64,000 bases of DNA from Spirochaetae bacterium HGW-Spirochaetae-1 (GCA_002839375.1 PGXY01000002.1:106764-170763), one strand, 5' to 3'; shown: positions 29,371 to 45,162, numbered from the stretch's first letter. The notes: generated by a model from the sequence alone, not told the origin. A program made the numbers and translations.

Positions 29371-31647
29371 ATGCGTGGTCAAGTGATGATTAAAGCAATT
29401 GCAACATATATTGGAAACAGAGCTGTCGGTAATGCGAGGCGATCATTTGCTCCTGTCCTGATCATGCTGGTAATGTTCCTTTCTTCCTGCGGTCACGGAG
29501 GGAATGTCCCGGAAGTTCGTAAGGGTGTGATTGATCTGCGGAACATCGATTTCAGGGAAAACAAGGATATTAAGCTCTCGGGGAGCTGGGAGTTTTTCTG
29601 GCAGAAGTTTCTCGTGACCGACGGTATGGATCCCGTAAATTCCTCACCTGACGGGCTAATTGACATCCCGGGAACCTGGAACGGATACAGGCTTCATGGA
29701 AAACGCCTCCCCGACCAGGGATTCGCATCATACAGGGCGACCCTGCTTTTACCGCCGGCAGGGGAGGAGTTTGCCATAAACCTCCTTTTTGCCATCTCTT
29801 CCAGCCGGGTATATGCTGCATATCCCGACGGATCGGTTGAGTTACTGGGAAAGGCCGGAAAGCCGGGTAAAACTGAGGAGGATACCCGTCCTCTCATGGG
29901 TTCGATCCTGGCTAAATTCAGGGGCGCCAATCGGGTAACGCTCATTTTTGAGGTGGCTGATTTCGGCACCAATATCGGCGGCTTGTGGACGGCGCCCTCG
30001 GTGGGACGTGCCGGGGACCTTACGCGGAATATCATGAATATCAGGTTCCGGGAGTTTTTTATTATAGGAGCCCTTACCATTTTCGGCTTTTTCCACATAT
30101 TATTTTTTCTTCTCCGCAGGGAAGAGAAGGCACCGCTCTGGCTCGGTATTTACTGCCTGCTCGTCGCCCTGTTATCGACATCCTACGGGAATCTCAGGCT
30201 GTTCGAGGAATTGTACCCTGATGCAAACTGTTTTGAGGCCCTTAACCGTGTAACGTTTCTGTGTATCTATCTCGGTTTCCCCATATTTCTGACTTTTTAT
30301 TACAAGGCTTTTCCCCGTTATTTCCCTGCCAGGATGATTTATGCTGTCTGGGGAATCTCTGTGCTGCTGACCCTGCCGGTGCTTTTTCTTAAGTCCTATT
30401 ATTTTTATAAAACGCTTATTGTGTATGACGCCCACATTATCATATTCGGTCTTTGGTTTGTTGTATTGATGATACGGGGTTTTTACCAGGACCGCAGCAG
30501 GCTGGCCTTCATCTCCTTCACAGGCCTGGCTGTAATTTTTGCCGTCTCGATTAATGATATTCTCATGGTTCACCGGGTTGTGAATACCGGGCTTTATTCT
30601 GGGTACGGTCTTTTCTTCCTGGTACTGACACAGGCATATATCGTATCATCACAGAATGCCTCGGCGCGAAGACGGGCGGAGAAGCTCTGGAAACAGCTCA
30701 TGCTTAAATCGGGTGAGCTGGAATCGGCCAACACCATGCTTACCGATCTCAATCTGAATCTTGAGCATAAGGTCGAGGGAAGAACCAGGGAGCTTCAGCA
30801 TGCCAAGGAGAAAATTGAAGCGGCCATGGAAGAGTTGGAATCGGTGAATGAACACCTCCTTTCAACCAACAGCCGTCTCGAACAGACCCAGAGAATTATA
30901 AAGGTTGACCTTTCCATGGCGGCAAACGTGCAGAAGAGTTTTTTTGTAAAGGACCCGCCCGCGATCCGCGATTGGGACATCGCTTTTGTTAATCAGCCCA
31001 TGGCCGATGTCTCAGGTGACTTCTATGATTTTTATACCGAGGAAGGCCGTCTTATGGGTATCTCGCTTTTTGACGTATCGGGCCATGGTGTTGCCTCGGG
31101 CCTCATCACCATGATAGGCAAGTCCCTGGCTTTCCGCCTTTTTATGGAAAACAGGGATAAACCTGCCGCTGATATTATGGGAATTTTTAATAAAAATCTC
31201 ATAAAGGAAATGGGGGCCATGGACAACTACCTCACGGGAGTGATGCTGAAGATCGACGGTGACTGCCTGGAGTATGTCAATGCAGCCCATCCAGACCTGC
31301 TTGTTCGAAAAGGGGGAAAGGATACAGTAGATATAATAAGAAAGTCCGATCATCCCGGGACAGGCGGATTCCTGGGCATCCCCATAATGAACAATGAGTT
31401 CGATATGCAGCGCGTTCCGGTTCAGAGCGGCGATTCTTTTCTTGTTTACAGCGATTGCCTGGTCGAAAATCAGAACCTGGGAGGGGAGCCATACGGTCTG
31501 GACAAGCTGGTAAGCGCTTTCGGGGCTGCTTCTCATGGTACGCCGGCCAGGGAGCAGCTTCAGTCAATCCTTGACGATTTTTATTTATACCTGCAAGGCA
31601 ACAAGCGTGCCGATGATCTTACAGCCGTGCTCCTCCGCAAGCTCTGA
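29371..31647 (+). CDS. 7TM-DISM sensor with coiled coil and PP2C/SpoIIE phosphatase
   Basis: GVIDLR...LSGSWEFFW extracellular domain, seven TM helices, SGDFYD, DVSGHGVASGL, YSDCLVE and DDLT. Confidence 0.9.
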   Translation: MRGQVMIKAIATYIGNRAVGNARRSFAPVLIMLVMFLSSCGHGGNVPEVRKGVIDLRNIDFRENKDIKLSGSWEFFWQKFLVTDGMDPVNSSPDGLIDIPGTWNGYRLHGKRLPDQGFASYRATLLLPPAGEEFAINLLFAISSSRVYAAYPDGSVELLGKAGKPGKTEEDTRPLMGSILAKFRGANRVTLIFEVADFGTNIGGLWTAPSVGRAGDLTRNIMNIRFREFFIIGALTIFGFFHILFFLLRREEKAPLWLGIYCLLVALLSTSYGNLRLFEELYPDANCFEALNRVTFLCIYLGFPIFLTFYYKAFPRYFPARMIYAVWGISVLLTLPVLFLKSYYFYKTLIVYDAHIIIFGLWFVVLMIRGFYQDRSRLAFISFTGLAVIFAVSINDILMVHRVVNTGLYSGYGLFFLVLTQAYIVSSQNASARRRAEKLWKQLMLKSGELESANTMLTDLNLNLEHKVEGRTRELQHAKEKIEAAMEELESVNEHLLSTNSRLEQTQRIIKVDLSMAANVQKSFFVKDPPAIRDWDIAFVNQPMADVSGDFYDFYTEEGRLMGISLFDVSGHGVASGLITMIGKSLAFRLFMENRDKPAADIMGIFNKNLIKEMGAMDNYLTGVMLKIDGDCLEYVNAAHPDLLVRKGGKDTVDIIRKSDHPGTGGFLGIPIMNNEFDMQRVPVQSGDSFLVYSDCLVENQNLGGEPYGLDKLVSAFGAASHGTPAREQLQSILDDFYLYLQGNKRADDLTAVLLRKL

Positions 31648-33335: not shown

Positions 33336-35549
33336 GTGTATAATAGATTCATGCGTTTTTTCCTGAAAAGTTTTGAGGATTCGGACTTCATGCTTCAGCA
33401 GAGGGCCCGGGTTTTGTTTGTGATTGTAATCTCATCCACAATCGCCCTGGTGGCCTTTTCGATATTCTTCATTGTCAGAGATCAGAGAGATCCCGGAATC
33501 ATACTGCCCTTCGTCGCTGCCATTGTCCTGATACTTGGGGCCCTGTTTTTTTTGAAAAAGGGTCATTTCAGCTTCTATGCCCATTTTTTACTCGTTGTCG
33601 CCCTTGTAGCAATATGGATGGTTAATTTTTTTGAATCGGGACCCCTGGTGCAAAGGATTGATTCCATCATCCTTGTTCTTGCCGTTCTGACCATGACACC
33701 GCTGGTTTTTATCAGGAAGGGCGGGGGCATTATTCTGTACTTTGCCCTGAATATGGTTCTGCTGCTGGTTTACTCCATCTATATTCAGATTACCTTCAAT
33801 CTCGAGAACAGCATCACCAGGGAGTTTATGCTGGATAACATCCTGGCCTTTTCACTGACCGGTGTGTTCTGCTACAGTATTTTTTCCATTTACAAGAGAT
33901 CTCTTGAAAAGGCCCAGAAGGCGGAGGAAGAGATCCAGGCCCAGTACGAGGAACTGGCCGCTACCAGCGAGGAACTGGAGGCCATGAACGATGAACTGAT
34001 CAAAGCCCACAACGACATCATGATATCCAACCAGAAGATCAACGAGGAAAGGGACCGCCTTGCTACAACACTGCGGTCCATCGGTGATGGTGTTATCACC
34101 CTTACATCGGAAGGGAATATTGAAACGATGAACAGGGCCGCAGAGGATATTCTGTGCCGAAGTTCAGGCGATTGCCGGGAGAAACATATCAACGAGGTTT
34201 TCAAGATTGTCAGTACAAGGGCTGAGCAGGCGCTGGACGATCCCATCGAGAAGGTTTTATGTGAGGGTGAACAGGTGGAGATGGAGGGCGATGTAATACT
34301 CATGTGCTGTGACGGTACCCGGAAAATGATTTCGGCCATAGCCACACCCCTGTATGATTCACTGAACAGGATTAATGGAGCCGTTATAGCCTTTCGTGAT
34401 ATAACCGAGAGAAAGAAAATGGAAGATGAGGTGCTCAAGGCATCGAAAATAGAATCGCTGGGCGTTTTTGCCGGGGGTATTGCCCATGATTTCAATAATC
34501 TTTTAACGGCAATTCTCGGCAGTGTTTCCATCGTGCGTCTGGATATGGAGGAGAAAAACCGGAACCGGGAATTTCTCCTCGATGCCGAAAGGGCATGCCT
34601 CAGGGCCAAGGATCTGACCCAGCAGCTCCTCACTTTTTCCAAGGGAGGAGCCCCTATTAAAACCATGGCATCGCTGAAAAATCTTATCAAGGATACTACG
34701 GCCTTCGTTCTTAGCGGATCAAGCGTGCAATGCGTCTATGATATCGATGAGCATTTATGGAATGCCGAGGTTGACCGGGGACAGATAAGCCAGGTAGTAC
34801 ATAACATGATTTTAAATGCCCGCCAGTCCATGATCGGTGGTGGAACTATCCGGGTGGTTGCCGTGAATGCAGTGATCGATGAAGAGAGTTCAATCCCCCT
34901 GCTACCCGGACATTACATCAGGGTGAGTATCAGTGATAGTGGTGACGGTATCAGGTCTGATATCATGAATAAAATATTTGAGCCTTTCTTTACGACAAAA
35001 ATGGAAGGTAACGGCCTGGGCCTTGCCGTAACTGCCAGTATCATCAAGAACCATAACGGTCATATAGCAGTACTCTCGGCACCGGGGGAGGGAGCCACTT
35101 TCGAGTTTTATCTTCCCGCTTCAATGGAAAAAGTCATGGAGGAAAAGGAAATCCTGACAACGAGTTCCTTCGATGGAGTAAGGATCCTTCTCATGGATGA
35201 TGATGAGATCGTGCTGCGGGTCGCCGAGCACATGCTCCAACGGCTGGGCTGTGAGGTGCAAACTTCGCGTGATGGTTCAAAGGCCATTGAATTATACCGT
35301 GGAAGCATCGAGTCTGGTCCCCGCTTCAAGGTTGTGATTATGGATCTTACCGTTCCCGGGGCCATGGGCGGCAAGGACGCCATGGTGGAACTTAAAAAGC
35401 TTGATCCGGATATTAGGGCTATTGTATCGAGCGGGTATGCCAATGATCCTGTCATGGCCAGGTTTCATGAGTATGGATTTTGCGGATATGTTATCAAGCC
35501 CTATAAAATTGAAGAACTGGGCAGGGCTATATTAAAAGCCTTGACGTAA
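33336..35549 (+). CDS. Hybrid sensor histidine kinase (6TM, PAS, HisKA, HATPase, receiver; CckA-like)
   Basis: GGIAHDFNNLLT, NMILNARQSM, DSGDGI, FEPFFTTK, GLGLA; receiver ILLMDDDE, IMDLTVPG and KPY. Confidence 0.92.
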   Translation: MYNRFMRFFLKSFEDSDFMLQQRARVLFVIVISSTIALVAFSIFFIVRDQRDPGIILPFVAAIVLILGALFFLKKGHFSFYAHFLLVVALVAIWMVNFFESGPLVQRIDSIILVLAVLTMTPLVFIRKGGGIILYFALNMVLLLVYSIYIQITFNLENSITREFMLDNILAFSLTGVFCYSIFSIYKRSLEKAQKAEEEIQAQYEELAATSEELEAMNDELIKAHNDIMISNQKINEERDRLATTLRSIGDGVITLTSEGNIETMNRAAEDILCRSSGDCREKHINEVFKIVSTRAEQALDDPIEKVLCEGEQVEMEGDVILMCCDGTRKMISAIATPLYDSLNRINGAVIAFRDITERKKMEDEVLKASKIESLGVFAGGIAHDFNNLLTAILGSVSIVRLDMEEKNRNREFLLDAERACLRAKDLTQQLLTFSKGGAPIKTMASLKNLIKDTTAFVLSGSSVQCVYDIDEHLWNAEVDRGQISQVVHNMILNARQSMIGGGTIRVVAVNAVIDEESSIPLLPGHYIRVSISDSGDGIRSDIMNKIFEPFFTTKMEGNGLGLAVTASIIKNHNGHIAVLSAPGEGATFEFYLPASMEKVMEEKEILTTSSFDGVRILLMDDDEIVLRVAEHMLQRLGCEVQTSRDGSKAIELYRGSIESGPRFKVVIMDLTVPGAMGGKDAMVELKKLDPDIRAIVSSGYANDPVMARFHEYGFCGYVIKPYKIEELGRAILKALT

Positions 35550-35568: not shown

Positions 35569-36294
35569 ATGAACGGTTCGTGGGGTACAATGAAAAGAAT
35601 ATCTACCTTTATTACCGTATCCATCCTGTGTCTTGTTTCCCCGGGTGCCTTCCCCAGCAATGAAACGGCACTGGCTTCCTATACCACCTCCGTGGTGGAT
35701 CAATCAGAAGGTGTGAGACAGAATATCGCCATTGCCTGTGAAAGTCTGAACGGTCATGTGATCGTGGCAGACCAGGTTTTTTCCTTCAATGAACGCGTTG
35801 GTGAAGGATCGTCACAAAACGGGTACAGGGAAGGCTCCGTACTCTACCAGGACACCCTGGTCATGGAATCGGGCGGCGGGATATGCCAGGTCTCTTCAAC
35901 GCTCTTCAATGCCCTGCTCCTGGCGGGCTTCCAGATCGTGGAGAGACATCGTCATTATCAGCCCGTCACCTATGTTCCCCTCGGTCTTGACGCCACCATC
36001 AAGTACGGGAAAAAGGATCTGCGTATGAAAAATACCCTTACGGGGAACGTTACCCTGCGGGTCATCCTCAACGACAGGAGCCTTTCCATAATCGTCATGG
36101 GCGCGGGAAAACCGGCCTGCACCTATCTCGTCGAGACCGAAGAAGAGGAAAACGAGCTGCCTTTTTCCAGAGGGGATGTGAAAATAAGGCCTGGGATGTC
36201 AGTATACGTTTACCGGAAAAAAGTCGTGAATGAAAAAACCGTGGAGAGGCTTCTTCTCTATAAAGATTTTTATCCGCCGGTACGGACCCGATGA
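35569..36294 (+). CDS. VanW family protein, exported
   Basis: Signal peptide; FSFNERVG, GGGICQVSSTLFNA, ERHRHY, YVPLGLDATI and DLRMKN. Confidence 0.88.
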   Translation: MNGSWGTMKRISTFITVSILCLVSPGAFPSNETALASYTTSVVDQSEGVRQNIAIACESLNGHVIVADQVFSFNERVGEGSSQNGYREGSVLYQDTLVMESGGGICQVSSTLFNALLLAGFQIVERHRHYQPVTYVPLGLDATIKYGKKDLRMKNTLTGNVTLRVILNDRSLSIIVMGAGKPACTYLVETEEEENELPFSRGDVKIRPGMSVYVYRKKVVNEKTVERLLLYKDFYPPVRTR

Positions 36295-36905
36295 AACGAT
36301 TGGTCCGATTCGCGGTAATACTGTTTTTCATGTCGGCCTGCATCGGCGGCGGAAGGAATCTTCAGGCAGGCGATGATGATCCTCTTGTTCCATGGTCGGC
36401 CCTGGCCGGGACTGACACCGGGAGCCTTCTCATTACCTGGCTCGGCGATGAAGCGCGCCGGTACCTGACGGGCTCGCGGGAGCGAACGGCATTACCCGCT
36501 TCTCTTCCCGGTTTTTACGGCAGGCTCGGTCTTTTTATCACCATGATGAAGGACGGCAGGGTGCGGGGATGCTACGGTTCGTTTTTTCACGATTCTGACG
36601 ACGCAGCTGCAGTGCTCCGGACGTATCTTCACGGTGCGCTCCGGCATGATATGAGAAATGATCCTCTGGGAATTGAAGAACTCGGGGAAACCCGTATCAT
36701 CCTCACCGTGACGACACAACCCTTCCATGCCGATGACATTGAAACCGTCGATATCGCGCATTACGGGGTAATCGTTCTCACCGCGGGCGGAGAACAGCAT
36801 GTTTTCGTTCCCGCCGAGATGAAAACGCATGAATATCTCAGAAAAAGACTCAAGGACGTGCCTATTCAGTCGGTCCAGGCTTTCCGGGCCGTGACAATAA
36901 AGTGA
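36291..36905 (+). CDS. AMMECR1-domain protein with a lipoprotein signal
   Basis: GLFITMMKDGRVRGCYG (LRGCIG-like), ALRHDMRNDPL...EL, HYGVIV and VFVP; N-terminal FFMSAC lipobox. Confidence 0.78.
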   Translation: MKRLVRFAVILFFMSACIGGGRNLQAGDDDPLVPWSALAGTDTGSLLITWLGDEARRYLTGSRERTALPASLPGFYGRLGLFITMMKDGRVRGCYGSFFHDSDDAAAVLRTYLHGALRHDMRNDPLGIEELGETRIILTVTTQPFHADDIETVDIAHYGVIVLTAGGEQHVFVPAEMKTHEYLRKRLKDVPIQSVQAFRAVTIK

Positions 36906-36906
36906 A

Positions 36907-39900
36907 ATGAACGTGGGGAGGTTTACCATGAAACATATGGGTATCAAATCGTTTGTCCTGTTGATGGTCTCATTTATGCTGGCCTGCTCTTCTGCGGGAG
37001 TAAAAAAGCTTGATGACGGCAGGAGCGTCTACAGCGGCGGGTCCTTAAAGGAGGTGTCGCGCGATGCGGTTATTGAGGGACATGTGTACGACCGGAAAAC
37101 GGAAAAGGCCGTACCAGGGGCCCGCGTGGAGATCAAGAACGCCAATATGGGCATCGGTTATTATCTGGTTGAAACCTCAGGGCGGGGATATTATTCCATC
37201 AAGGACTTCATTCCCCATGTTCAGTACATCATGGAAATCTCGGCCGAGGGATATGTCACCTATACATCGACGGGACATATCAATCCCGGCGAACAGGATA
37301 TTTACCTCGATCCCGAAGCGGTTCTGGCGGGCACTATCACCGACTCAACGGGCAGGCCTATTTCCGGCGTGGAGGTCAAACTGCAGAACAGCGATTACAG
37401 CGATGACGGCCGCGAGAACAGGCCGCAGTTCAGTACGACGGGCAGCGATGGAAAATACCGCTTTATCAAACTTGTCCAGGGAAGCTACAGCCTGGCCTTC
37501 TCCGGCAGCGGGTACATCACTGAAACTGCCAGGCTGCAACGTCTTAAGCAGGGGGAAACCTTCAAGCTCGATATGAAGATGTTCCGGCCCGCATCGATCG
37601 CCGGGACCGTGATGATAAAGGATCTGGACGTACCGGCTCAGAATATTTCCGTGATAGCCACGGGGAGAAACAATCATTCCGCCGTCACCTACCAGGACGG
37701 CACGTGGCGACTCGATGAAATGAAACCGGGAACCTATGAACTCAATGTGTCTCACAAGGGATTTTATGATCTGACGAAAAGAAAGATTGTTCTCAATGAG
37801 GGTGAGGAAAAGAAGGATGTGGGTTTTGTCGTGGAGGCCAAAAGACCGGAAGCGCAGGTGTATGCATACCGGTATACTTTCGCGCCGGGAAACAAACTGG
37901 AATTCAACCTGAGGACATTCCGCCTTGAATCGGTGACGGCAACGGTATATCGTGTGCCCATGGCCGTTTTCCTGAAAGGAAAGGGAGAACCGGACCTCAT
38001 GAATCCCCCGGCGGAAGGTTTTGCCGTCGTGACGAAATGGGAGGAACCCATACTTAATTTTGAACCATTCCAGTGGCGTTACCAGAATCTTTCCATAAAA
38101 GATCCCCTGGCATCGGGAGGCTACTGCATCGAGGTAAAGGGCGCCGGGAAAGTGATAAGCCGCAAATTTTTTACCGTTACCTCCGTGGGGACCGTGGTCA
38201 AGAGGTCGCAGAATACGGTTTTTGTCTATGCCACGAATCTTGTCGATAACGGGCCTGAGAAAGACGCTTCCGTGGTCATCTTTGACGCCACGGAGGAAAT
38301 CAAGGCCAAAAAAAGGGCGGGGCAGTCTTTTACGGCGCCGCAGCGGATTGAAGATCTTCCCGTGAGCATTGTGCACCAGGGTAAAACCAATAAAGACGGC
38401 ATATACCGGTACGGAGTTAAATCGGGCAGGTATCTCAGCGTCCTGGTTATCTCCCGTGACGGAAGTTATGCCATCTGTAATACGGGATCGCCATCGACTT
38501 TTCAGCGGGAGAAATATAAGTATTTTATCTACACGGACCGTCCCGTATACCGCTCCGGTGATACGGTTTATTACAAGATAATTGGCAAGGAGCGCAAAGA
38601 ACTTTTCATTCCCATTGAGGGAAAAAATCTTTTCTATAAAATCATAAACACCGACACGGACCAGGCAGTCCGGCAGGGAACCATCAAGCTTGATGAATGG
38701 GGTACGGCACAGGGAAAAATTACTATAGAGGAAACATTCGGGCTGGGCACCTACGAAGTACGTGCGGGACCGACGGAAAAAGATCTCTATGCCAGCGGTA
38801 TTTTTTATGTGGAGCAGTACCGGAAACCGGAATATGCCGTTGAAGTGACGCCGTCGCAGGAGTATTTCATCAACGGTGATGAACTGGAATTTAAAGTTGA
38901 GGCCAAGTATTTTTTCGGCGCACCTGTCAGGGGTGGGCTGGTGCGGTATCGTTTTTACGAGAACAAGCTGAACGATGCGGACAACCAGTATTGGTTTGAC
39001 GGTGAATCGGGGGATTCCGGTTCATACAACCGGCTCAGGCTCGACGGCGAAAAATATCTCGATGAAAACGGTATTGCATCCCTGAAGCTTTTTTCGGGAA
39101 ATTTTCCCTATGACCGGGAAGTCACTCTCGAAGCAACGGTCATCGATGAATCAAATGTGAGCATTACATCACAGAAAACCATACGCGTAGGCCGAGGGGA
39201 GTTTTACATAAAAATTAATCCCAGGCAGAATTTCTTCGCTTCGGGTGATAAAAAGGAAGTTGCCATTAAAACAATGACACAAACCGGGAAGCCCATCAGC
39301 GCCAACGTGAAGGTGGAGCTCTACCGGTATATCTGGAAACCCTATCAGCGTGTCTATGTCCATGAATCGCGTCCCCGTTTTTCCGAAAGGGTCACCACGA
39401 ACAGCAAGGGCGAGGCATCGATCGAGCTTCCGGCCCGCTTTGCCGAGTCGGGAGAGTATGATATAATAACCTCCAGCTTTGACCGGAGGAGCAACAAAAT
39501 CGAGGCTTCGCGCATCATCCTGGTTTATAATCCCTCGGGAGGGGAGGTTTCATCGCGTTTCAGAAATCTGGAACTTTCCGTGAGCGATACGGTTTTTGAA
39601 AAACCGGGAGAGGTTACCTGTCTCATAAAAAGCCGATTCAGCGATGCCTATGTCTGTGTCACCCTGGAGGGGAGGGATATCTACTATTCCCGTGTCGTTA
39701 AGATGACGGGCAATATCACGCCCGTTACCATTCCCGTCAGGGAGGAATACGCGCCAAACTTTTATATAAATGCCGTTATGCAGCGCAAGCGGGCGCTGTA
39801 TACGGTTTCCGAGAATATTTCCATTCCGGTGAAGGAAACCACGCTGAAGGTTTCAATCACACCGAAAAAGGAGGTCTACCTCCCGGGAGATACGGCCGAG

Positions 39901-42318
39901 GTAACCGTTAAAACCACTGATGAAAAAGGGAATCCTATTCGGGCCGACCTGTCCCTGGCAGCCGTTGATGAGGCTATTTACAGCATACGCTATGACCACA
40001 CGCCGAAGATGAAGGATTTCTTTTACACGAAAATATCCAACTGGGTTCTCACCAGCTATTCCTATCCCATCACCCTGCTCGCCGGTGCCGGCAAGGACGG
40101 CAAGGTAAAGGTACGCCAGAAATTCGACGATACGGCCTTCTGGAACGGAATAATACGGACCGACGAAAAGGGCATGGCCCTGGTGAGCTTCAAACTGCCC
40201 GATAATCTCACCACCTGGCGTCTCACGGCCCGGGGGCATGACAGAAAGGGGCGTGTCGGAGAAGAACTCAAGAAATTTCTCGTGACCCAGGACCTGATCG
40301 CGCGCCTGGGTAAACCCCGGTTCTTCATAGAAGGTGATGCCATATCGCTCCTGGGCATCGTCAACAGCAATACGCAGCGCGGTCTGGAACACATCAAAAC
40401 CGAAATGAAGGTCAATGACGCCACTGTGCGCCCTGATCAGGATATAAAAATGAGTCTTCCCGCCTTCGGCTCGGCCCGGAATATCTATTCCATTACCGTT
40501 CCGGAAAATAAAAAGGAACTCACGGTTCGCTTCGATGCCCTGGCCGATAAAGGAGCCGTAGATGCCCTGCAGATAGCCATCCCCGTGGAACGGCGCGGGG
40601 CCTCGTACAAGCTTTTCGGTTACGGCGATATGGCGGAAAACCGTAAAGTCGTACTGGTACCGGTTCAGAAGAGCGATGATTTTTATTTTGTTCCGGAAAA
40701 AATAATTCTCACGGTGAATCCCACGCCGCTGATCCAGATGATCAAGTCATCGGAATACCTGGTTAAATATCCCTATGGGTGTGTTGAACAGACCATCAAC
40801 AGCTTTATGCCCGTCATGGCCCTGCACCGGTTTCTGGAGAAACAGAGTGCCGCTCACCTTGTCGCTCAGAAGGATGTGGATACGGTCAATGCCAAAACTC
40901 ATGCCGGCGTCAAAAAACTGGGACAGTCGCAGAATGACGACGGCACATGGGGATGGTGGGCGGGAGACAGGGGCAATGCCTTCCTTACGGGGTATGCTCT
41001 CCAGTCTCTGTTTGCAGCCGGTAAATACGGCTATGCCGTGGACAATTCCGTGACGGTACGGGGCCTCCAGTCGGTGAAACGCATACTGCAGGATGATGAG
41101 ATCGAAGATGATGATGCACGGGCCTATCTGCTCTATACCTATGCCCTGTATGGCCTGTGGGACGCCCGGGCCTACGAAAAACTTTCCCGGCTGAGAAATC
41201 AAAACCCCTATCGCCTTGCCTTCATGGTCAGGGCCCTGGCGTCGAGAAAAGGAGGTCTTATTCTCGATGACAGTGATAAGAAGAAAAATGAAGATGTCTG
41301 GAATACGGATATGGCAAAATTCACGGGACTCCTGAAATCCATGGCCATGAGGGATGGAAAGGGAATATACTGGGAGAGCGCCGATGCCCAGCGTTGGGGG
41401 TGGCAGGGTGGACGTGTTGAAATAACCGCCCATGTTCTGTCTGCATTGGTAGCCGCCGGCGATTCCTCGCCGCTGCCGGGCCAGATGGTTCAATCAATCG
41501 CCAAGCGGAGCAGGGGCGAAGCCTGGAGCTCCACCAAGGAAACAGCCACGGTCATTTACAGTTTTGTGGATTTCCTTGAACAAAGCGGATCTACGGCCGG
41601 CGAACCACTGAATGTATCTTTTGCCATGAATGGAAACAGGATAGCCGATTTCAGGTACGACCCCTCGGAGAAAAAACCGGCCGATAGCCTGGTGAAAATC
41701 ATTCCCGTCAATTTGCCCGGTGATGGCGGTGATATCGCTATTGAGGTTGCGGGAACGGCAGGGAAGGATGCGGGATACGAGGTTACGGCCGCCGGTACCC
41801 TGTACTTTAAGCCGAAGGGCTTACTGTCGGCCTTCAGGTCTGAAGAGAGAAGCCTCGGCGCCCTCTCCAATGGTTTGGTCCTGCACCGGAGCTTTTCGTC
41901 GCTGACGCGCGTCAAGGACCTGCATTATCGGGAGTACCTGGTTCCCGGCAATCTCTCGGACAAAAAGGAAATACAGGTGGGCGACGAGATCCTGGTGAAA
42001 CTGCGGTTCCAGGCCCAGGACAATTTCGAGTATCTTGTTCTGGAGGACTATTTGCCATCAGGATTCGAGGTAGTGAAGGAATACGCCTACGATGAATACC
42101 GCCCCTTTGTCCGTGTTGAGCGCTGGGACAACCGCATGGTTTATTTCTTCAACAATGTTCAGAAGGGGGCGGTGTACGAAGTGGCCTTCATCGTTAGGGC
42201 CGAACTTCCCGGCAGTTTCATGGTGCGGCCCACGCGGATGGAGTGCATGTATGAGCCCTCGATCCAGGGATGGTCGGCTCCCATGGTAATAGAAGTGAAG
42301 GGCAAAAATTCCAAGTAA
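36907..42318 (+). CDS. Bacterial alpha-2-macroglobulin lipoprotein with N-terminal carboxypeptidase-regulatory-like repeats
   Basis: Lipobox LAC; IYTDRPVYRSGDTV, EQYRKPEY, VRQKFDDTAFW, PDNLTTW, thioester YPYGCVEQT, QNDDGTWGWW, EDYLPSGFE and MYEP. Confidence 0.93.
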   Translation: MNVGRFTMKHMGIKSFVLLMVSFMLACSSAGVKKLDDGRSVYSGGSLKEVSRDAVIEGHVYDRKTEKAVPGARVEIKNANMGIGYYLVETSGRGYYSIKDFIPHVQYIMEISAEGYVTYTSTGHINPGEQDIYLDPEAVLAGTITDSTGRPISGVEVKLQNSDYSDDGRENRPQFSTTGSDGKYRFIKLVQGSYSLAFSGSGYITETARLQRLKQGETFKLDMKMFRPASIAGTVMIKDLDVPAQNISVIATGRNNHSAVTYQDGTWRLDEMKPGTYELNVSHKGFYDLTKRKIVLNEGEEKKDVGFVVEAKRPEAQVYAYRYTFAPGNKLEFNLRTFRLESVTATVYRVPMAVFLKGKGEPDLMNPPAEGFAVVTKWEEPILNFEPFQWRYQNLSIKDPLASGGYCIEVKGAGKVISRKFFTVTSVGTVVKRSQNTVFVYATNLVDNGPEKDASVVIFDATEEIKAKKRAGQSFTAPQRIEDLPVSIVHQGKTNKDGIYRYGVKSGRYLSVLVISRDGSYAICNTGSPSTFQREKYKYFIYTDRPVYRSGDTVYYKIIGKERKELFIPIEGKNLFYKIINTDTDQAVRQGTIKLDEWGTAQGKITIEETFGLGTYEVRAGPTEKDLYASGIFYVEQYRKPEYAVEVTPSQEYFINGDELEFKVEAKYFFGAPVRGGLVRYRFYENKLNDADNQYWFDGESGDSGSYNRLRLDGEKYLDENGIASLKLFSGNFPYDREVTLEATVIDESNVSITSQKTIRVGRGEFYIKINPRQNFFASGDKKEVAIKTMTQTGKPISANVKVELYRYIWKPYQRVYVHESRPRFSERVTTNSKGEASIELPARFAESGEYDIITSSFDRRSNKIEASRIILVYNPSGGEVSSRFRNLELSVSDTVFEKPGEVTCLIKSRFSDAYVCVTLEGRDIYYSRVVKMTGNITPVTIPVREEYAPNFYINAVMQRKRALYTVSENISIPVKETTLKVSITPKKEVYLPGDTAEVTVKTTDEKGNPIRADLSLAAVDEAIYSIRYDHTPKMKDFFYTKISNWVLTSYSYPITLLAGAGKDGKVKVRQKFDDTAFWNGIIRTDEKGMALVSFKLPDNLTTWRLTARGHDRKGRVGEELKKFLVTQDLIARLGKPRFFIEGDAISLLGIVNSNTQRGLEHIKTEMKVNDATVRPDQDIKMSLPAFGSARNIYSITVPENKKELTVRFDALADKGAVDALQIAIPVERRGASYKLFGYGDMAENRKVVLVPVQKSDDFYFVPEKIILTVNPTPLIQMIKSSEYLVKYPYGCVEQTINSFMPVMALHRFLEKQSAAHLVAQKDVDTVNAKTHAGVKKLGQSQNDDGTWGWWAGDRGNAFLTGYALQSLFAAGKYGYAVDNSVTVRGLQSVKRILQDDEIEDDDARAYLLYTYALYGLWDARAYEKLSRLRNQNPYRLAFMVRALASRKGGLILDDSDKKKNEDVWNTDMAKFTGLLKSMAMRDGKGIYWESADAQRWGWQGGRVEITAHVLSALVAAGDSSPLPGQMVQSIAKRSRGEAWSSTKETATVIYSFVDFLEQSGSTAGEPLNVSFAMNGNRIADFRYDPSEKKPADSLVKIIPVNLPGDGGDIAIEVAGTAGKDAGYEVTAAGTLYFKPKGLLSAFRSEERSLGALSNGLVLHRSFSSLTRVKDLHYREYLVPGNLSDKKEIQVGDEILVKLRFQAQDNFEYLVLEDYLPSGFEVVKEYAYDEYRPFVRVERWDNRMVYFFNNVQKGAVYEVAFIVRAELPGSFMVRPTRMECMYEPSIQGWSAPMVIEVKGKNSK

Positions 42319-42472: not shown

Positions 42473-44038
42473 ATGAATACAACAAAAAGACTTAATACAT
42501 CACTGAATGAAGAGAAGGACGTAGACCTGTTTTCCAATGTCATGACTCAAAATAATATCAGGATGCTGAAGGCCTTCTCAAGTATCGTACTGCTGTCAAA
42601 TATTGCCACACTGGCGATAAAAATGACGGGGGCCTCTTCGAAATATCTCACCTATACAGGTATATTTGTCGAACTTTTTCTGATTACCTTCATCGTGTCC
42701 GTCTCGTTTCTGATCACCAAGAAATTGAAAAATGTCGTTCTTTCCAGCTATATATTCATGACCGGCATCATGTTGTCGATCTGGGTGTTTCAGTTCATTA
42801 TTTACGGAGCAACGGAACTTTTCGCCATCCATTACATTGCTATTGCCCTCAGTGTATTCTATTTTGATAAAAAAATCGTCATTTATACCCTGCTGCTGGT
42901 AATAATATCGCAGACCACCCTGCTTGTGATGAGACCGGAACTGAGGCCGGGCGGGCCTGCCAGCAACTTGCTTATCAGGTATCTTATTTATATATGGACC
43001 GGTATCGGTGCATCGGTGGGTGCCGGGGCCACGAAGGAACTTCTCAAGCTGGCCATAAACAAGCAAAATGAGGCGAAACAAAGCCTGGGTGATCTCAGGA
43101 AAATTGCGGCCGCCATGGTCGATTCCGTTGATGTGCTGCAATCACATACAAAAAGCCAGGAGTCCGTTACGGGTGAAATGGATTCAATTTCCCAGGATCA
43201 GGCAGCTTCCCTGGAGGAGATATCAGCCTTTCTGGAAGAGCTGGCTGCCAATTCCGAGTCGATTAACGATGTGGCCAAATCGTTATACCGTGACATAAGT
43301 CTCACCGTTGATTCGGTCCATGAATTCAAAGAAATAAATGATTCGGTTCTCGAGAATTCCAATGAAATCATTGAAACCCTGAAGGAAATATCCCTCTACT
43401 CAAAAAATAACGCCGATCATATCAAGCTGACAAAGGAAAAATCAGAGATATTAAAGAATAAAAGTACTGAGATGTCGAATTTTGTACAGGTCATCAATGA
43501 CATTGCCGATCAGGTGAATCTGCTTTCACTGAACGCGGCCATCGAAGCGGCCCGGGCCGGGGATTCAGGCCGGGGATTTGCCGTTGTGGCCGATGAGATT
43601 TCCAAACTCGCCGATGCCACGACCAACAACGCGAAAGAAATTAACAGGATAATAGTGGAAAACCAGAAGCAAATAGATGAAAGCACAAGGCTTATTGATG
43701 AATCGTCGATCATGACCGTCAAGCTCAATGAGGCTATTTTAAGGATACAGGACAAGGTAAAGGACGCCGGTAACAGGATGCGGATCATTGGAGATAAAAT
43801 TAAAGCCATACGGGAAATAAATTCCAATATCCATGAGGCGAGCTCATCCATTGAAAATTCAATTCAGCAGCAGGAAGCGGGCATAAGTGAATCGAGTGAT
43901 ACCATCTCCAGTATTGCAAAAGATGCTCAGAAAATTGTTAAAATATCCGGTTCAATCCTGATTGCCAATAACACGTTAAATGACATGTCAGCGCAAATGC
44001 AGATTCTTGCCAGGAGCATGGTACATGCACAGGAATAA
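42473..44038 (+). CDS. Methyl-accepting chemotaxis protein with multi-TM N-terminus
   Basis: [40 protein letters not shown]. Confidence 0.93.
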
Positions 44039-44649: not shown

Positions 44650-45162
44650 TTATTTGCTTCGTAAAGTTCTTATTTTTTTTCTCACTTCGTCGGGGAATGT
44701 GCTGGAAAATTTCATTTCCTGCGGCAATTCATCGTAAAATTCCACAGCCATTTTATTTACCGCCGGATAGGGGCTTGTCACTGCTGCCCTGATAGGACCA
44801 CCCATATAAGCTTTTGGGAGGTACTGTATTTTCTCCGCGGCGCGAATGGGCTCCCTGGGATCCGAATAGTTGAAAGAGTGGGACGGATCATGGGCGCCAA
44901 GAAAGAAATTTGAATTGAGAACCTCCATTATAGACCGGGCTGCGATGGTGTACAGACGCTTATAAATATCCCTCGTTTCCTTGTACTCCCTCAGTTCACA
45001 CGATACTGAATCGGTGGGAAGTTCAGGCAGCCTGTTCAGCCTGTCCAGGGTGTCCAGCTTGTCGTAAAGGTCTTCGCTTTCCAGCGCCTTGATTATAAGA
45101 AGCGCCATCCTTTTCATTTTAGCCAGTTCGGTGATAGTGTTTTGCAGTCTATTTGCGTTCAT
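44650..45162 (-). CDS. Orphan hypothetical protein
   Basis: 170 aa ORF filling an otherwise empty gap; no recognisable family. Confidence 0.55.
   Translation of the reverse strand: MNANRLQNTITELAKMKRMALLIIKALESEDLYDKLDTLDRLNRLPELPTDSVSCELREYKETRDIYKRLYTIAARSIMEVLNSNFFLGAHDPSHSFNYSDPREPIRAAEKIQYLPKAYMGGPIRAAVTSPYPAVNKMAVEFYDELPQEMKFSSTFPDEVRKKIRTLRSK

Follow-up and report, generated by a model that had tools for sequence, protein, structure and literature searches.

The VanW-AMMECR1-A2M locus

We analysed a stretch of 64,000 nucleotides (nt) from Spirochaetae bacterium HGW-Spirochaetae-1 (GCA_002839375.1, PGXY01000002.1:106764-170763), further referred to as the window; all positions are counted from its first letter. 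The window carries three adjacent genes that encode a VanW-domain protein, a protein with the AMMECR1 fold and a thioester alpha-2-macroglobulin (A2M). The three longest open reading frames (ORFs), 35569-36294, 36291-36905 and 36907-42318, all lie on the plus strand. Domains of the window proteins were assigned using Pfam gathering cut-offs; NCBIfam and profile searches of the Protein Data Bank (PDB) were used as well. The features of the locus are listed below.

35590..36294, plus strand: VanW-domain protein (Pfam PF04294), 234 amino acids (aa) from the ATG at 35590; the longest ORF starts at 35569
36291..36905, plus strand: exported AMMECR1-fold protein (Pfam PF01871), 204 aa
36929..42318, plus strand: thioester alpha-2-macroglobulin (Pfam); the longest ORF starts at 36907 and has 1803 aa
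40780..40791, plus strand: CVEQ thioester motif of A2M, in the context YPYGCVEQTINSF

A previous sequence-only reading had described a coupled operon of three exported proteins. The ATGA in which the stop codon of VanW overlaps the start codon of AMMECR1 is indeed present at 36291-36294. The 1-bp gap between AMMECR1 and A2M holds for the longest ORF (36907), but the likelier A2M start at ATG 36929 leaves a gap of about 23 nt. This start, with a predicted product beginning MKHMGIKSFVLLMVSFMLAC, was favoured because GGGGAGG is found 7 nt upstream. For VanW, the ATG at 35590 (MKRISTF...), as in the relatives, is a more likely start than 35569.

Export signals were sought with our own scan of candidate starts for a basic-then-hydrophobic N-terminus, which is a heuristic and not SignalP. 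Such N-termini were found on all three proteins, in agreement with the sequence-only reading. They recur throughout the families: in 72 of 74 AMMECR1 proteins (both exceptions are cut by contig ends), in all 57 VanW proteins and in 64 of 65 A2Ms.

The three proteins

The VanW protein matches PF04294 with an E-value of 3e-43 (146.8 bits against a cut-off of 27). Apart from the signal peptide it comprises only the VanW domain, of about 210 residues, with neither PG_binding_4 nor G5. The candidate catalytic residue, Cys99 (35884-35886), lies inside GGGICQ. Together with His120/His122 and Asp134 it is invariant in 57 family members, as well as in the A2M-VanW fusions described below. Cys99 is the sole invariant cysteine of the family. 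No solved relative of the protein was found by sequence in the PDB. The score for the glycopeptide-resistance VanW model NF033128 is 85 bits, below the equivalog cut-off of 365, and therefore this is not a vancomycin-resistance VanW. L,D-transpeptidase activity of VanW domains was demonstrated in 2024, with a Cys-His-Asp triad of which the cysteine is essential; they also have carboxypeptidase activity, are inhibited by meropenem and were described as scarce outside Gram-positive bacteria (PMC11348318). By its conserved residues and export signal, the window VanW is predicted to be a periplasmic L,D-transpeptidase.

The AMMECR1 protein scores 55.5 bits against PF01871 (cut-off 25; E-value 6.5e-15), so that its identity, proposed from the sequence, is borne out by hidden Markov model search. 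The profile search matched the crystal structures 1zq7, 1vaj and 1wsc, and these were also the only Foldseek matches at E-values of at most 0.001 (probability 1.00) of an AlphaFold2 model with a predicted local distance difference test score of 89.9. The motif R92-G93-C94-Y95-G96 (RGCYG) includes Cys94 at 36570-36572. RGCxG (R92, G93, C94, G96) and D120-x-R122 are invariant in 74 relatives and are kept across a second, diverged exported clade (see below); RGChG and DxR form the active site proposed for the family by Balaji and Aravind (PMC2034487). In the window protein D120-M-R122 is followed by N rather than by an aromatic residue, as it would be in DxR(aromatic). Inside the clade of the window protein H100 and E176 are invariant as well. 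Both exported groups have P-x-E where most cytoplasmic members have P-Q-V, making E176 specific for the exported clades. The retention of Cys, Asp, Arg and Glu in both exported clades would argue for chemistry and not a purely structural role.

The signal peptide places the AMMECR1 protein outside the cytoplasm. AMMECR1 proteins had been taken as normally cytoplasmic and associated with Memo and radical-SAM partners. This holds for the Memo/radical-SAM type. A sizeable exported group exists as well, however, and is mostly linked to A2M, VanW or SpoIID. The window protein falls below the model for AmmeMemoRadiSam system protein A (TIGR04335; 35.7 bits, cut-off 99). It had further been called a lipoprotein. 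A possible lipobox, FMSAC, is present here, and FLSAC in the relative P0006 with 93% identity, but only 4 of 74 members have a lipobox, the window protein included. Thus export is conserved while lipoprotein status is not: AMMECR1 is an exported protein in general, and perhaps a lipoprotein in this lineage only. One protein retrieved by the profile search, P0234 (495 aa), is a Memo-AMMECR1 fusion with an apparent N-terminal hydrophobic leader (MENGIRFSVIKIIFTLYFCLLTTITFALQ); judging from this leader, the Memo/AMMECR1 pair, taken as cytoplasmic, may have exported versions too.

The A2M contains three N-terminal CarboxypepD_reg domains followed by MG2, MG3, A2M_BRD, A2M, TED_complement and bMG10, all above the Pfam cut-offs. 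The thioester motif CVEQ is intact at 40780-40791, within YPYGCVEQ, as the sequence-only reading stated, and CxEQ is kept in each of 55 full-length relatives. Judged by CxEQ in the TED and by its MG, bait, A2M and bMG10 domains, the protein fits type I (thioester) bacterial A2M. Among solved structures, E. coli YfhM/ECAM and Salmonella A2M are nearest to it; the YfhM match extends only over the A2M/TED part (E-value 3e-17). A lipobox-like motif followed by Cys occurs in about 40 of 65 relatives.

Conservation of the gene neighbourhood

A word-indexed protein search yielded 19 relatives of the AMMECR1 protein, all from spirochaete-type metagenome-assembled genomes (MAGs), with 37-93% identity. 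A pattern scan with AMMECR1, retaining one genome per species, then gave 72 species-level loci. All of these genome records are MAGs or metagenome assemblies, and phylum counts follow the record labels. Most are Spirochaetota/Leptospirales MAGs; seven are Thermodesulfobacteriota (Syntrophales, Smithellaceae, Syntrophorhabdus). Neighbours were tallied by tblastn with the window proteins, as follows.

A2M directly downstream of AMMECR1: 61 loci
A2M within 4 kb: 2 loci
A2M not assessable (contig end): 4 loci
A2M absent: 5 loci
VanW directly upstream of AMMECR1: 48 loci
VanW separated by 426-614 nt between the aligned parts: 5 loci
VanW 2-10 kb off: 5 loci
VanW not assessable (contig end): 3 loci
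VanW not found in the available upstream sequence (up to 10 kb): 11 loci

The spacing is operon-like: the median distance between VanW and AMMECR1 is 2.5 nt, with overlap in 24 of 54 cases, and that between AMMECR1 and A2M is 31 nt. Hence this gene-neighbourhood search shows the trio, noted earlier in the single genome, to be a conserved and tightly coupled unit.

The best 120 relatives of the A2M all share the architecture of the window protein (43-61% identity). Approached from the A2M side, four of four relatives chosen irrespective of AMMECR1, on contigs other than those of the loci above, have AMMECR1 directly upstream, and therefore the association is reciprocal within this A2M clade. 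VanW stands beside AMMECR1 in three of the four, and in the fourth a STAS gene is located in between. At L082 (5051-5416) we observed a STAS-domain gene of the anti-sigma antagonist type between VanW and AMMECR1, with a PilJ/response-regulator gene just upstream.

The set is not always complete. AMMECR1 accompanies peptidoglycan enzymes without A2M at about nine loci, against about two (L020, L126) where it is found with A2M alone. The A2M-less sets comprise VanW-AMMECR1 only (L070-L072, L075, L076) and a transpeptidase (TP), SpoIID and AMMECR1 (L110, L112, L130/131). In one spirochaete clade, seen at L070, L072, L075 (9252-10531) and L076, the VanW and AMMECR1 genes overlap and no A2M lies within 10 kb. 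Just downstream of the pair in L075 there is a convergent gene for an HtrA-type protease (Trypsin_2 and PDZ) and an Amidase_3 gene.

A fourth gene in most relatives

A gene of about 690 aa directly follows A2M in 36 of 48 assessable relatives, with a median gap of 1.5 nt; sometimes a small LapA-domain gene is found between the two. A profile built from 19 members matched SpoIID structures at positions 170-399 (E-value 3e-12) and a class-B penicillin-binding protein (PBP) transpeptidase at positions 430-569 (E-value 4e-15). NCBIfam concurs with the assignment to SpoIID plus transpeptidase. The SxxK, SCN (SxN) and KTxT motifs are invariant in the family, and all 38 products have an export signal.

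The sequence-only reading had assigned VanW to a PbpC-like position. This is contradicted by the relatives: since most of them carry the SpoIID-transpeptidase fusion after A2M, VanW is not a simple replacement of PbpC, and VanW and AMMECR1 are additional upstream genes. It had also been allowed that pbpC might prove to be the conserved partner in relatives. A penicillin-binding-type gene does occupy that place, but it is the SpoIID-transpeptidase fusion and not PbpC.

A second exported AMMECR1 clade and the A2M-VanW fusion

We searched 1.84 billion representative proteins with an AMMECR1 profile. The spirochaete-type subfamily appears as a discrete block of 70 clusters at E-values of at most 1e-30, followed by a second tier with E-values from 1e-23 to 1e-13. 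Second-tier proteins are about 25-33% identical to the window protein. In a sample of them, 15 of 15 aligned members have an N-terminal hydrophobic leader, and most contain VLLPGEA[KR]T. A metagenome scan with an alignment of eight second-tier sequences produced 52 loci, some of them near-duplicates. A2M adjoins AMMECR1 at 30 of these loci, while VanW is present at 27 and SpoIID at 14. Where the flanks are long enough (25 loci), at least one partner is present in 22 and A2M in 18. At three long loci without partners, AMMECR1 has TrkA and DUF6807 genes as neighbours and looks like an ordinary member of its family.

The gene orders differ within the second tier: VanW-AMMECR1-A2M, AMMECR1-A2M-VanW, and TP-only PBP, SpoIID, AMMECR1. 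The association thus survives both divergence and rearrangement, which is strong evidence of a functional link. At L110, L112, L122, L123, L130 and L132 the TP-only PBP (about 300 aa), SpoIID (about 370-500 aa) and AMMECR1 are separate genes, whereas the spirochaete fusion has the two functions the other way round, with SpoIID preceding TP. ORFs of 562-618 aa at L110, L112, L130 and L131 had looked like SpoIID-AMMECR1 fusions. They were rejected: their first approximately 400 residues are an Arg/Gly/Pro-rich wrong-frame read-through of high-GC DNA, and the true genes behind them are the separate TP-only PBP, SpoIID and AMMECR1.

In eight second-tier loci A2M and VanW form one ORF of 1675-1721 aa, whose product is predicted to be exported. 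Pfam detects all of the A2M domains in it and, after them, VanW (E-value 7.5e-48). The same architecture is found in 14 protein clusters, the named ones being called 'VanW family protein'. MAG labels, where given, are Bacillota, Firmicutes or Clostridia, plus one Betaproteobacteria. Fusions translated from contigs keep CxEQ, GG[IV]CQ, ERHxH and G.DAT. In the two contexts examined, the fusion directly follows a 280-aa AMMECR1 gene, with a 4-nt overlap in one case and a 19-nt gap in the other; the AMMECR1 protein has an N-terminal membrane anchor, and a gene for such a protein precedes the fusion on each contig inspected. The fusion was observed at L101, L102, L106 (8421-13448), L107, L111, L114-L116, L136 and L137.

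Evolution and distribution

In the trees of AMMECR1, VanW and A2M the copies from Thermodesulfobacteriota are nested in the spirochaete diversity as one or two clades, a pattern consistent with transfer of the whole module in one piece. The five VanW-AMMECR1 loci without A2M constitute one long-branched clade of the AMMECR1 tree. One AMMECR1 on a contig binned as Candidatus Cloacimonadota (L071) is identical to that in a Spirochaetes bin (L072), and for this reason the Cloacimonadota copy is probably a binning error rather than an inter-phylum transfer.

Surroundings of the locus in the window

Two further genes flank the trio.

33336..35549, plus strand: hybrid sensor kinase PAS-HisKA-HATPase-REC (Pfam), ending 20-40 nt before VanW
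42473-44038: methyl-accepting chemotaxis protein (Pfam), 150 nt downstream of A2M and followed by an Lhr helicase gene

With these flanks, neither pbpC (PBP1c) nor the yfaA/T/Q/P genes are at the trio locus, as the sequence-only reading had implied. No PBP-like gene was found in the window (tblastn, E-value 1e-5), and neither the operon nor its flanks contain a Memo or radical-SAM gene. The hybrid kinase may be co-transcribed with the VanW operon in this lineage. As a member of the module it was ruled out, because it is shared only with the relative of 93% identity (L079), and other loci have different upstream genes. The presence of signalling genes on both sides (PAS hybrid histidine kinase, chemotaxis receptor) is specific to this lineage. 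Elsewhere in the window, we observed a 7TMR-DISM/SpoIIE phosphatase at 29371-31647 and a 170-aa ORF without a Pfam match on the minus strand (44650-45162), between the chemotaxis receptor and the Lhr helicase; at the matching position of L079 a gene of equal size is called. Promoter and terminator scans of the region gave counts equal to the shuffled-sequence level. PADLOC returned zero matches for all three trio proteins, and NCBIfam has no model specific for the proteins of this module.

Comparison with known systems

Two operon types are described for bacterial A2Ms, one linked to PBP1c and the other to Mag/Yfa (PMC5764988). The window A2M resembles that of E. coli yfhM-pbpC ('Type I'), so far as Budd 2004 is represented in PMC5764988, in being an exported lipoprotein-type A2M with CxEQ, bait, TED and MG10, and in being encoded beside a peptidoglycan enzyme. 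Unlike that operon, the locus lacks pbpC (GT51 glycosyltransferase plus transpeptidase) and has VanW and an exported AMMECR1 upstream, while relatives of the window add the fusion of SpoIID and a class-B-like transpeptidase downstream. Unlike YfhM, the window A2M has three extra N-terminal CarboxypepD_reg domains. With P. aeruginosa magABCDEF and E. coli yfaA-yfaT-yfaS-yfaQ-yfaP ('Type II') the locus shares exported accessory proteins that accompany A2M. The accessory proteins of Pseudomonas bind and stabilise A2M (PMC5764988), a precedent for obligate small partners. However, Type II A2Ms lack the thioester that the window A2M has, the window operon lacks the Mag/Yfa accessory families, and the mag operon lacks VanW and AMMECR1.

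The VanW protein is similar to C. difficile Ldt4/Ldt5 (PMC11348318) in its Pfam domain, invariant Cys, His and Asp, and extracytoplasmic location; unlike them, it lacks PG_binding_4 and G5, its source is a diderm spirochaete, and its activity is a predicted one. The AMMECR1 protein has the fold, RGChG and DxR of AmmeMemoRadiSam system protein A (1VAJ, 1ZQ7, 1WSC) but differs in its signal peptide, in the lack of a Memo/radical-SAM neighbour and in having P-x-E instead of P-Q-V.

In its working, the module proposed below resembles the LdtD/PBP1B/PBP6a pathway of E. coli, which reportedly rescues peptidoglycan under outer-membrane assembly stress (Morè et al. are said to have described it in 2019). 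There an L,D-transpeptidase, a tetrapeptide-supplying carboxypeptidase and a glycan-strand enzyme reinforce the wall of the damaged envelope. That L,D-transpeptidase, however, is of the YkuD and not the VanW type, the genes of the pathway are scattered rather than gathered in one operon, and no A2M or AMMECR1 takes part.

The sequence-only reading knew of no description of the trio, and the literature that we searched contains nothing linking A2M with VanW, AMMECR1 or SpoIID. Set against this literature, the locus seems to vary the A2M theme of 'trap plus wall enzyme' in a way not described before.

Proposed function of the module

By the accepted interpretation of yfhM-pbpC, proteases entering the damaged envelope are stopped by A2M, and the peptidoglycan is repaired by PBP1c (PMC5764988). 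On balance, we favour a related account of the present locus: the three genes would form one operon for an envelope module that acts in the periplasm by 'trap-and-mend', and bacterial A2M would thereby have a third type of operon. In such a module the A2M lipoprotein would reside in the periplasm with its Cys-Gln thioester buried. A protease that has passed the outer membrane would cut the bait region and so be captured covalently by the thioester. VanW, through Cys99, would make 3-3 cross-links from tetrapeptide stems and thereby re-stitch or reinforce the peptidoglycan independently of the ordinary PBPs; its role as the cell-wall repair partner, suggested in the sequence-only reading, is plausible given that VanW domains are L,D-transpeptidases (PMC11348318). 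In most relatives, the SpoIID-type lytic transglycosylase fused to a transpeptidase/carboxypeptidase-type domain would work at that site too, on both glycan strands and stem peptides, and the serine domain of this fourth protein could be the source of the tetrapeptide donors on which L,D-transpeptidases depend.

The exported AMMECR1 would be an obligate accessory, most likely a cysteine-dependent enzyme or adaptor on the peptidoglycan side that, for example, prepares or hands over stem-peptide substrates; action on the A2M thioester seems less likely. The loci where AMMECR1 is found with peptidoglycan enzymes only (about nine), compared with those where it is found with A2M alone (about two), lean towards a peptidoglycan-side function. 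A bolder proposal, which we hold to be rather unlikely, is that the exported P-x-E AMMECR1 proteins are a new class of extracytoplasmic cysteine-dependent enzymes acting on peptidoglycan stem peptides. Such enzymes might produce the acyl donor used by VanW or pass it on, or they might transfer the activated A2M-protease adduct to the wall.

Several points weigh against the trap-and-mend account. The fourth gene is present neither in the window (tblastn, E-value 1e-5) nor at L079; the three-gene form without it occurs in 8-9 further species. When foreign VanW proteins were assayed for L,D-transpeptidase activity, three of seven were active and four inactive (PMC11348318); therefore this activity should not be assumed here. 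Since the carriers live freely and anaerobically in groundwater, sludge and sediment, the 'host protease' argument made for E. coli is not directly applicable. The window stretch was found only in DNA runs from groundwater and sediment metagenomes and in no RNA run. To our knowledge, no reaction has been assigned to any member of the AMMECR1 fold. An earlier prediction had the family acting on RNA or together with radical-SAM partners (PMC2034487), a role inapplicable to the exported protein because it lies outside the cytoplasm.

Alternative explanations

VanW might serve to anchor proteins and not to repair the wall. It would covalently link A2M, its adduct with a protease, or AMMECR1 to stem peptides of the peptidoglycan, as YkuD-type L,D-transpeptidases do with Braun lipoprotein or OutB, and the trap, or a protease caught in it, would thus be fixed to the sacculus. 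L,D-transpeptidases of that other family do attach proteins to peptidoglycan (PMC12274547), the A2M-VanW fusion puts the transpeptidase in cis with the trap, and VanW and A2M remain together despite the change of gene order. Nevertheless, we regard anchoring as improbable: VanW enzymes are known only for 3-3 cross-linking and carboxypeptidase activity (PMC11348318), the co-occurring SpoIID and PBP-type genes suit wall remodelling better, and VanW-AMMECR1 pairs exist without A2M.

The same low probability is given to a housekeeping role, in which the module would be a peptidoglycan-remodelling machine and A2M would restrain the cell's own periplasmic proteases or endopeptidases, with no defence against foreign ones. 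The irreversible and stoichiometric nature of thioester trapping is better suited to defence than to regulation, the module is patchy and horizontally transferred like accessory defence genes, and no endogenous protease gene is conserved in it. This has to be set against the nature of the carriers, which are environmental anaerobes without a host, the numerical balance of three or four peptidoglycan-related functions to one trap, and the A2M-less locus where a convergent HtrA protease and an amidase stand beside the pair.

A role of AMMECR1 in A2M maturation, its cysteine forming, proofreading or shielding the Cys-Gln thioester, would account for its being the gene most constantly beside A2M (61 of 68 assessable loci, and four of four from the A2M side), for the two-gene operons of AMMECR1 and A2M-VanW, and for the invariant, exposed-type Cys motif. 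But AMMECR1 is also retained beside VanW or SpoIID at loci that lack a nearby A2M. Moreover, recombinant A2Ms of E. coli and Salmonella form functional thioesters without a partner, and these species have no AMMECR1; since enterobacterial thioesters arise without it, we consider a maturation role very unlikely. Finally, a chance neighbourhood of three genes in this genome is refuted by conservation in dozens of species, in a deeply diverged clade with shuffled order and as a gene fusion.

Biological significance

If the bolder proposal on the exported AMMECR1 proteins is true, A2M, VanW and AMMECR1, with or without SpoIID/PBP, would make up a third class of bacterial A2M systems working as one machine, and the AMMECR1 fold would obtain its first biochemical activity. 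As an operon type, the module is a third and widespread one beside the PBP1c-linked and Mag/Yfa-linked types, with MAGs labelled Spirochaetota, Thermodesulfobacteriota and Bacillota, and many unassigned metagenome contigs, carrying the module. The recruitment to A2M of an unrelated cross-linking enzyme, even by fusion, independently strengthens the old idea of trapping and mending, and VanW-type L,D-transpeptidases would be extended into diderm bacteria. AMMECR1, a family ranging from archaea to humans, is placed in a defined setting outside the cell, among three or four partners whose chemistry is known, which may provide a handle on the function of its fold.

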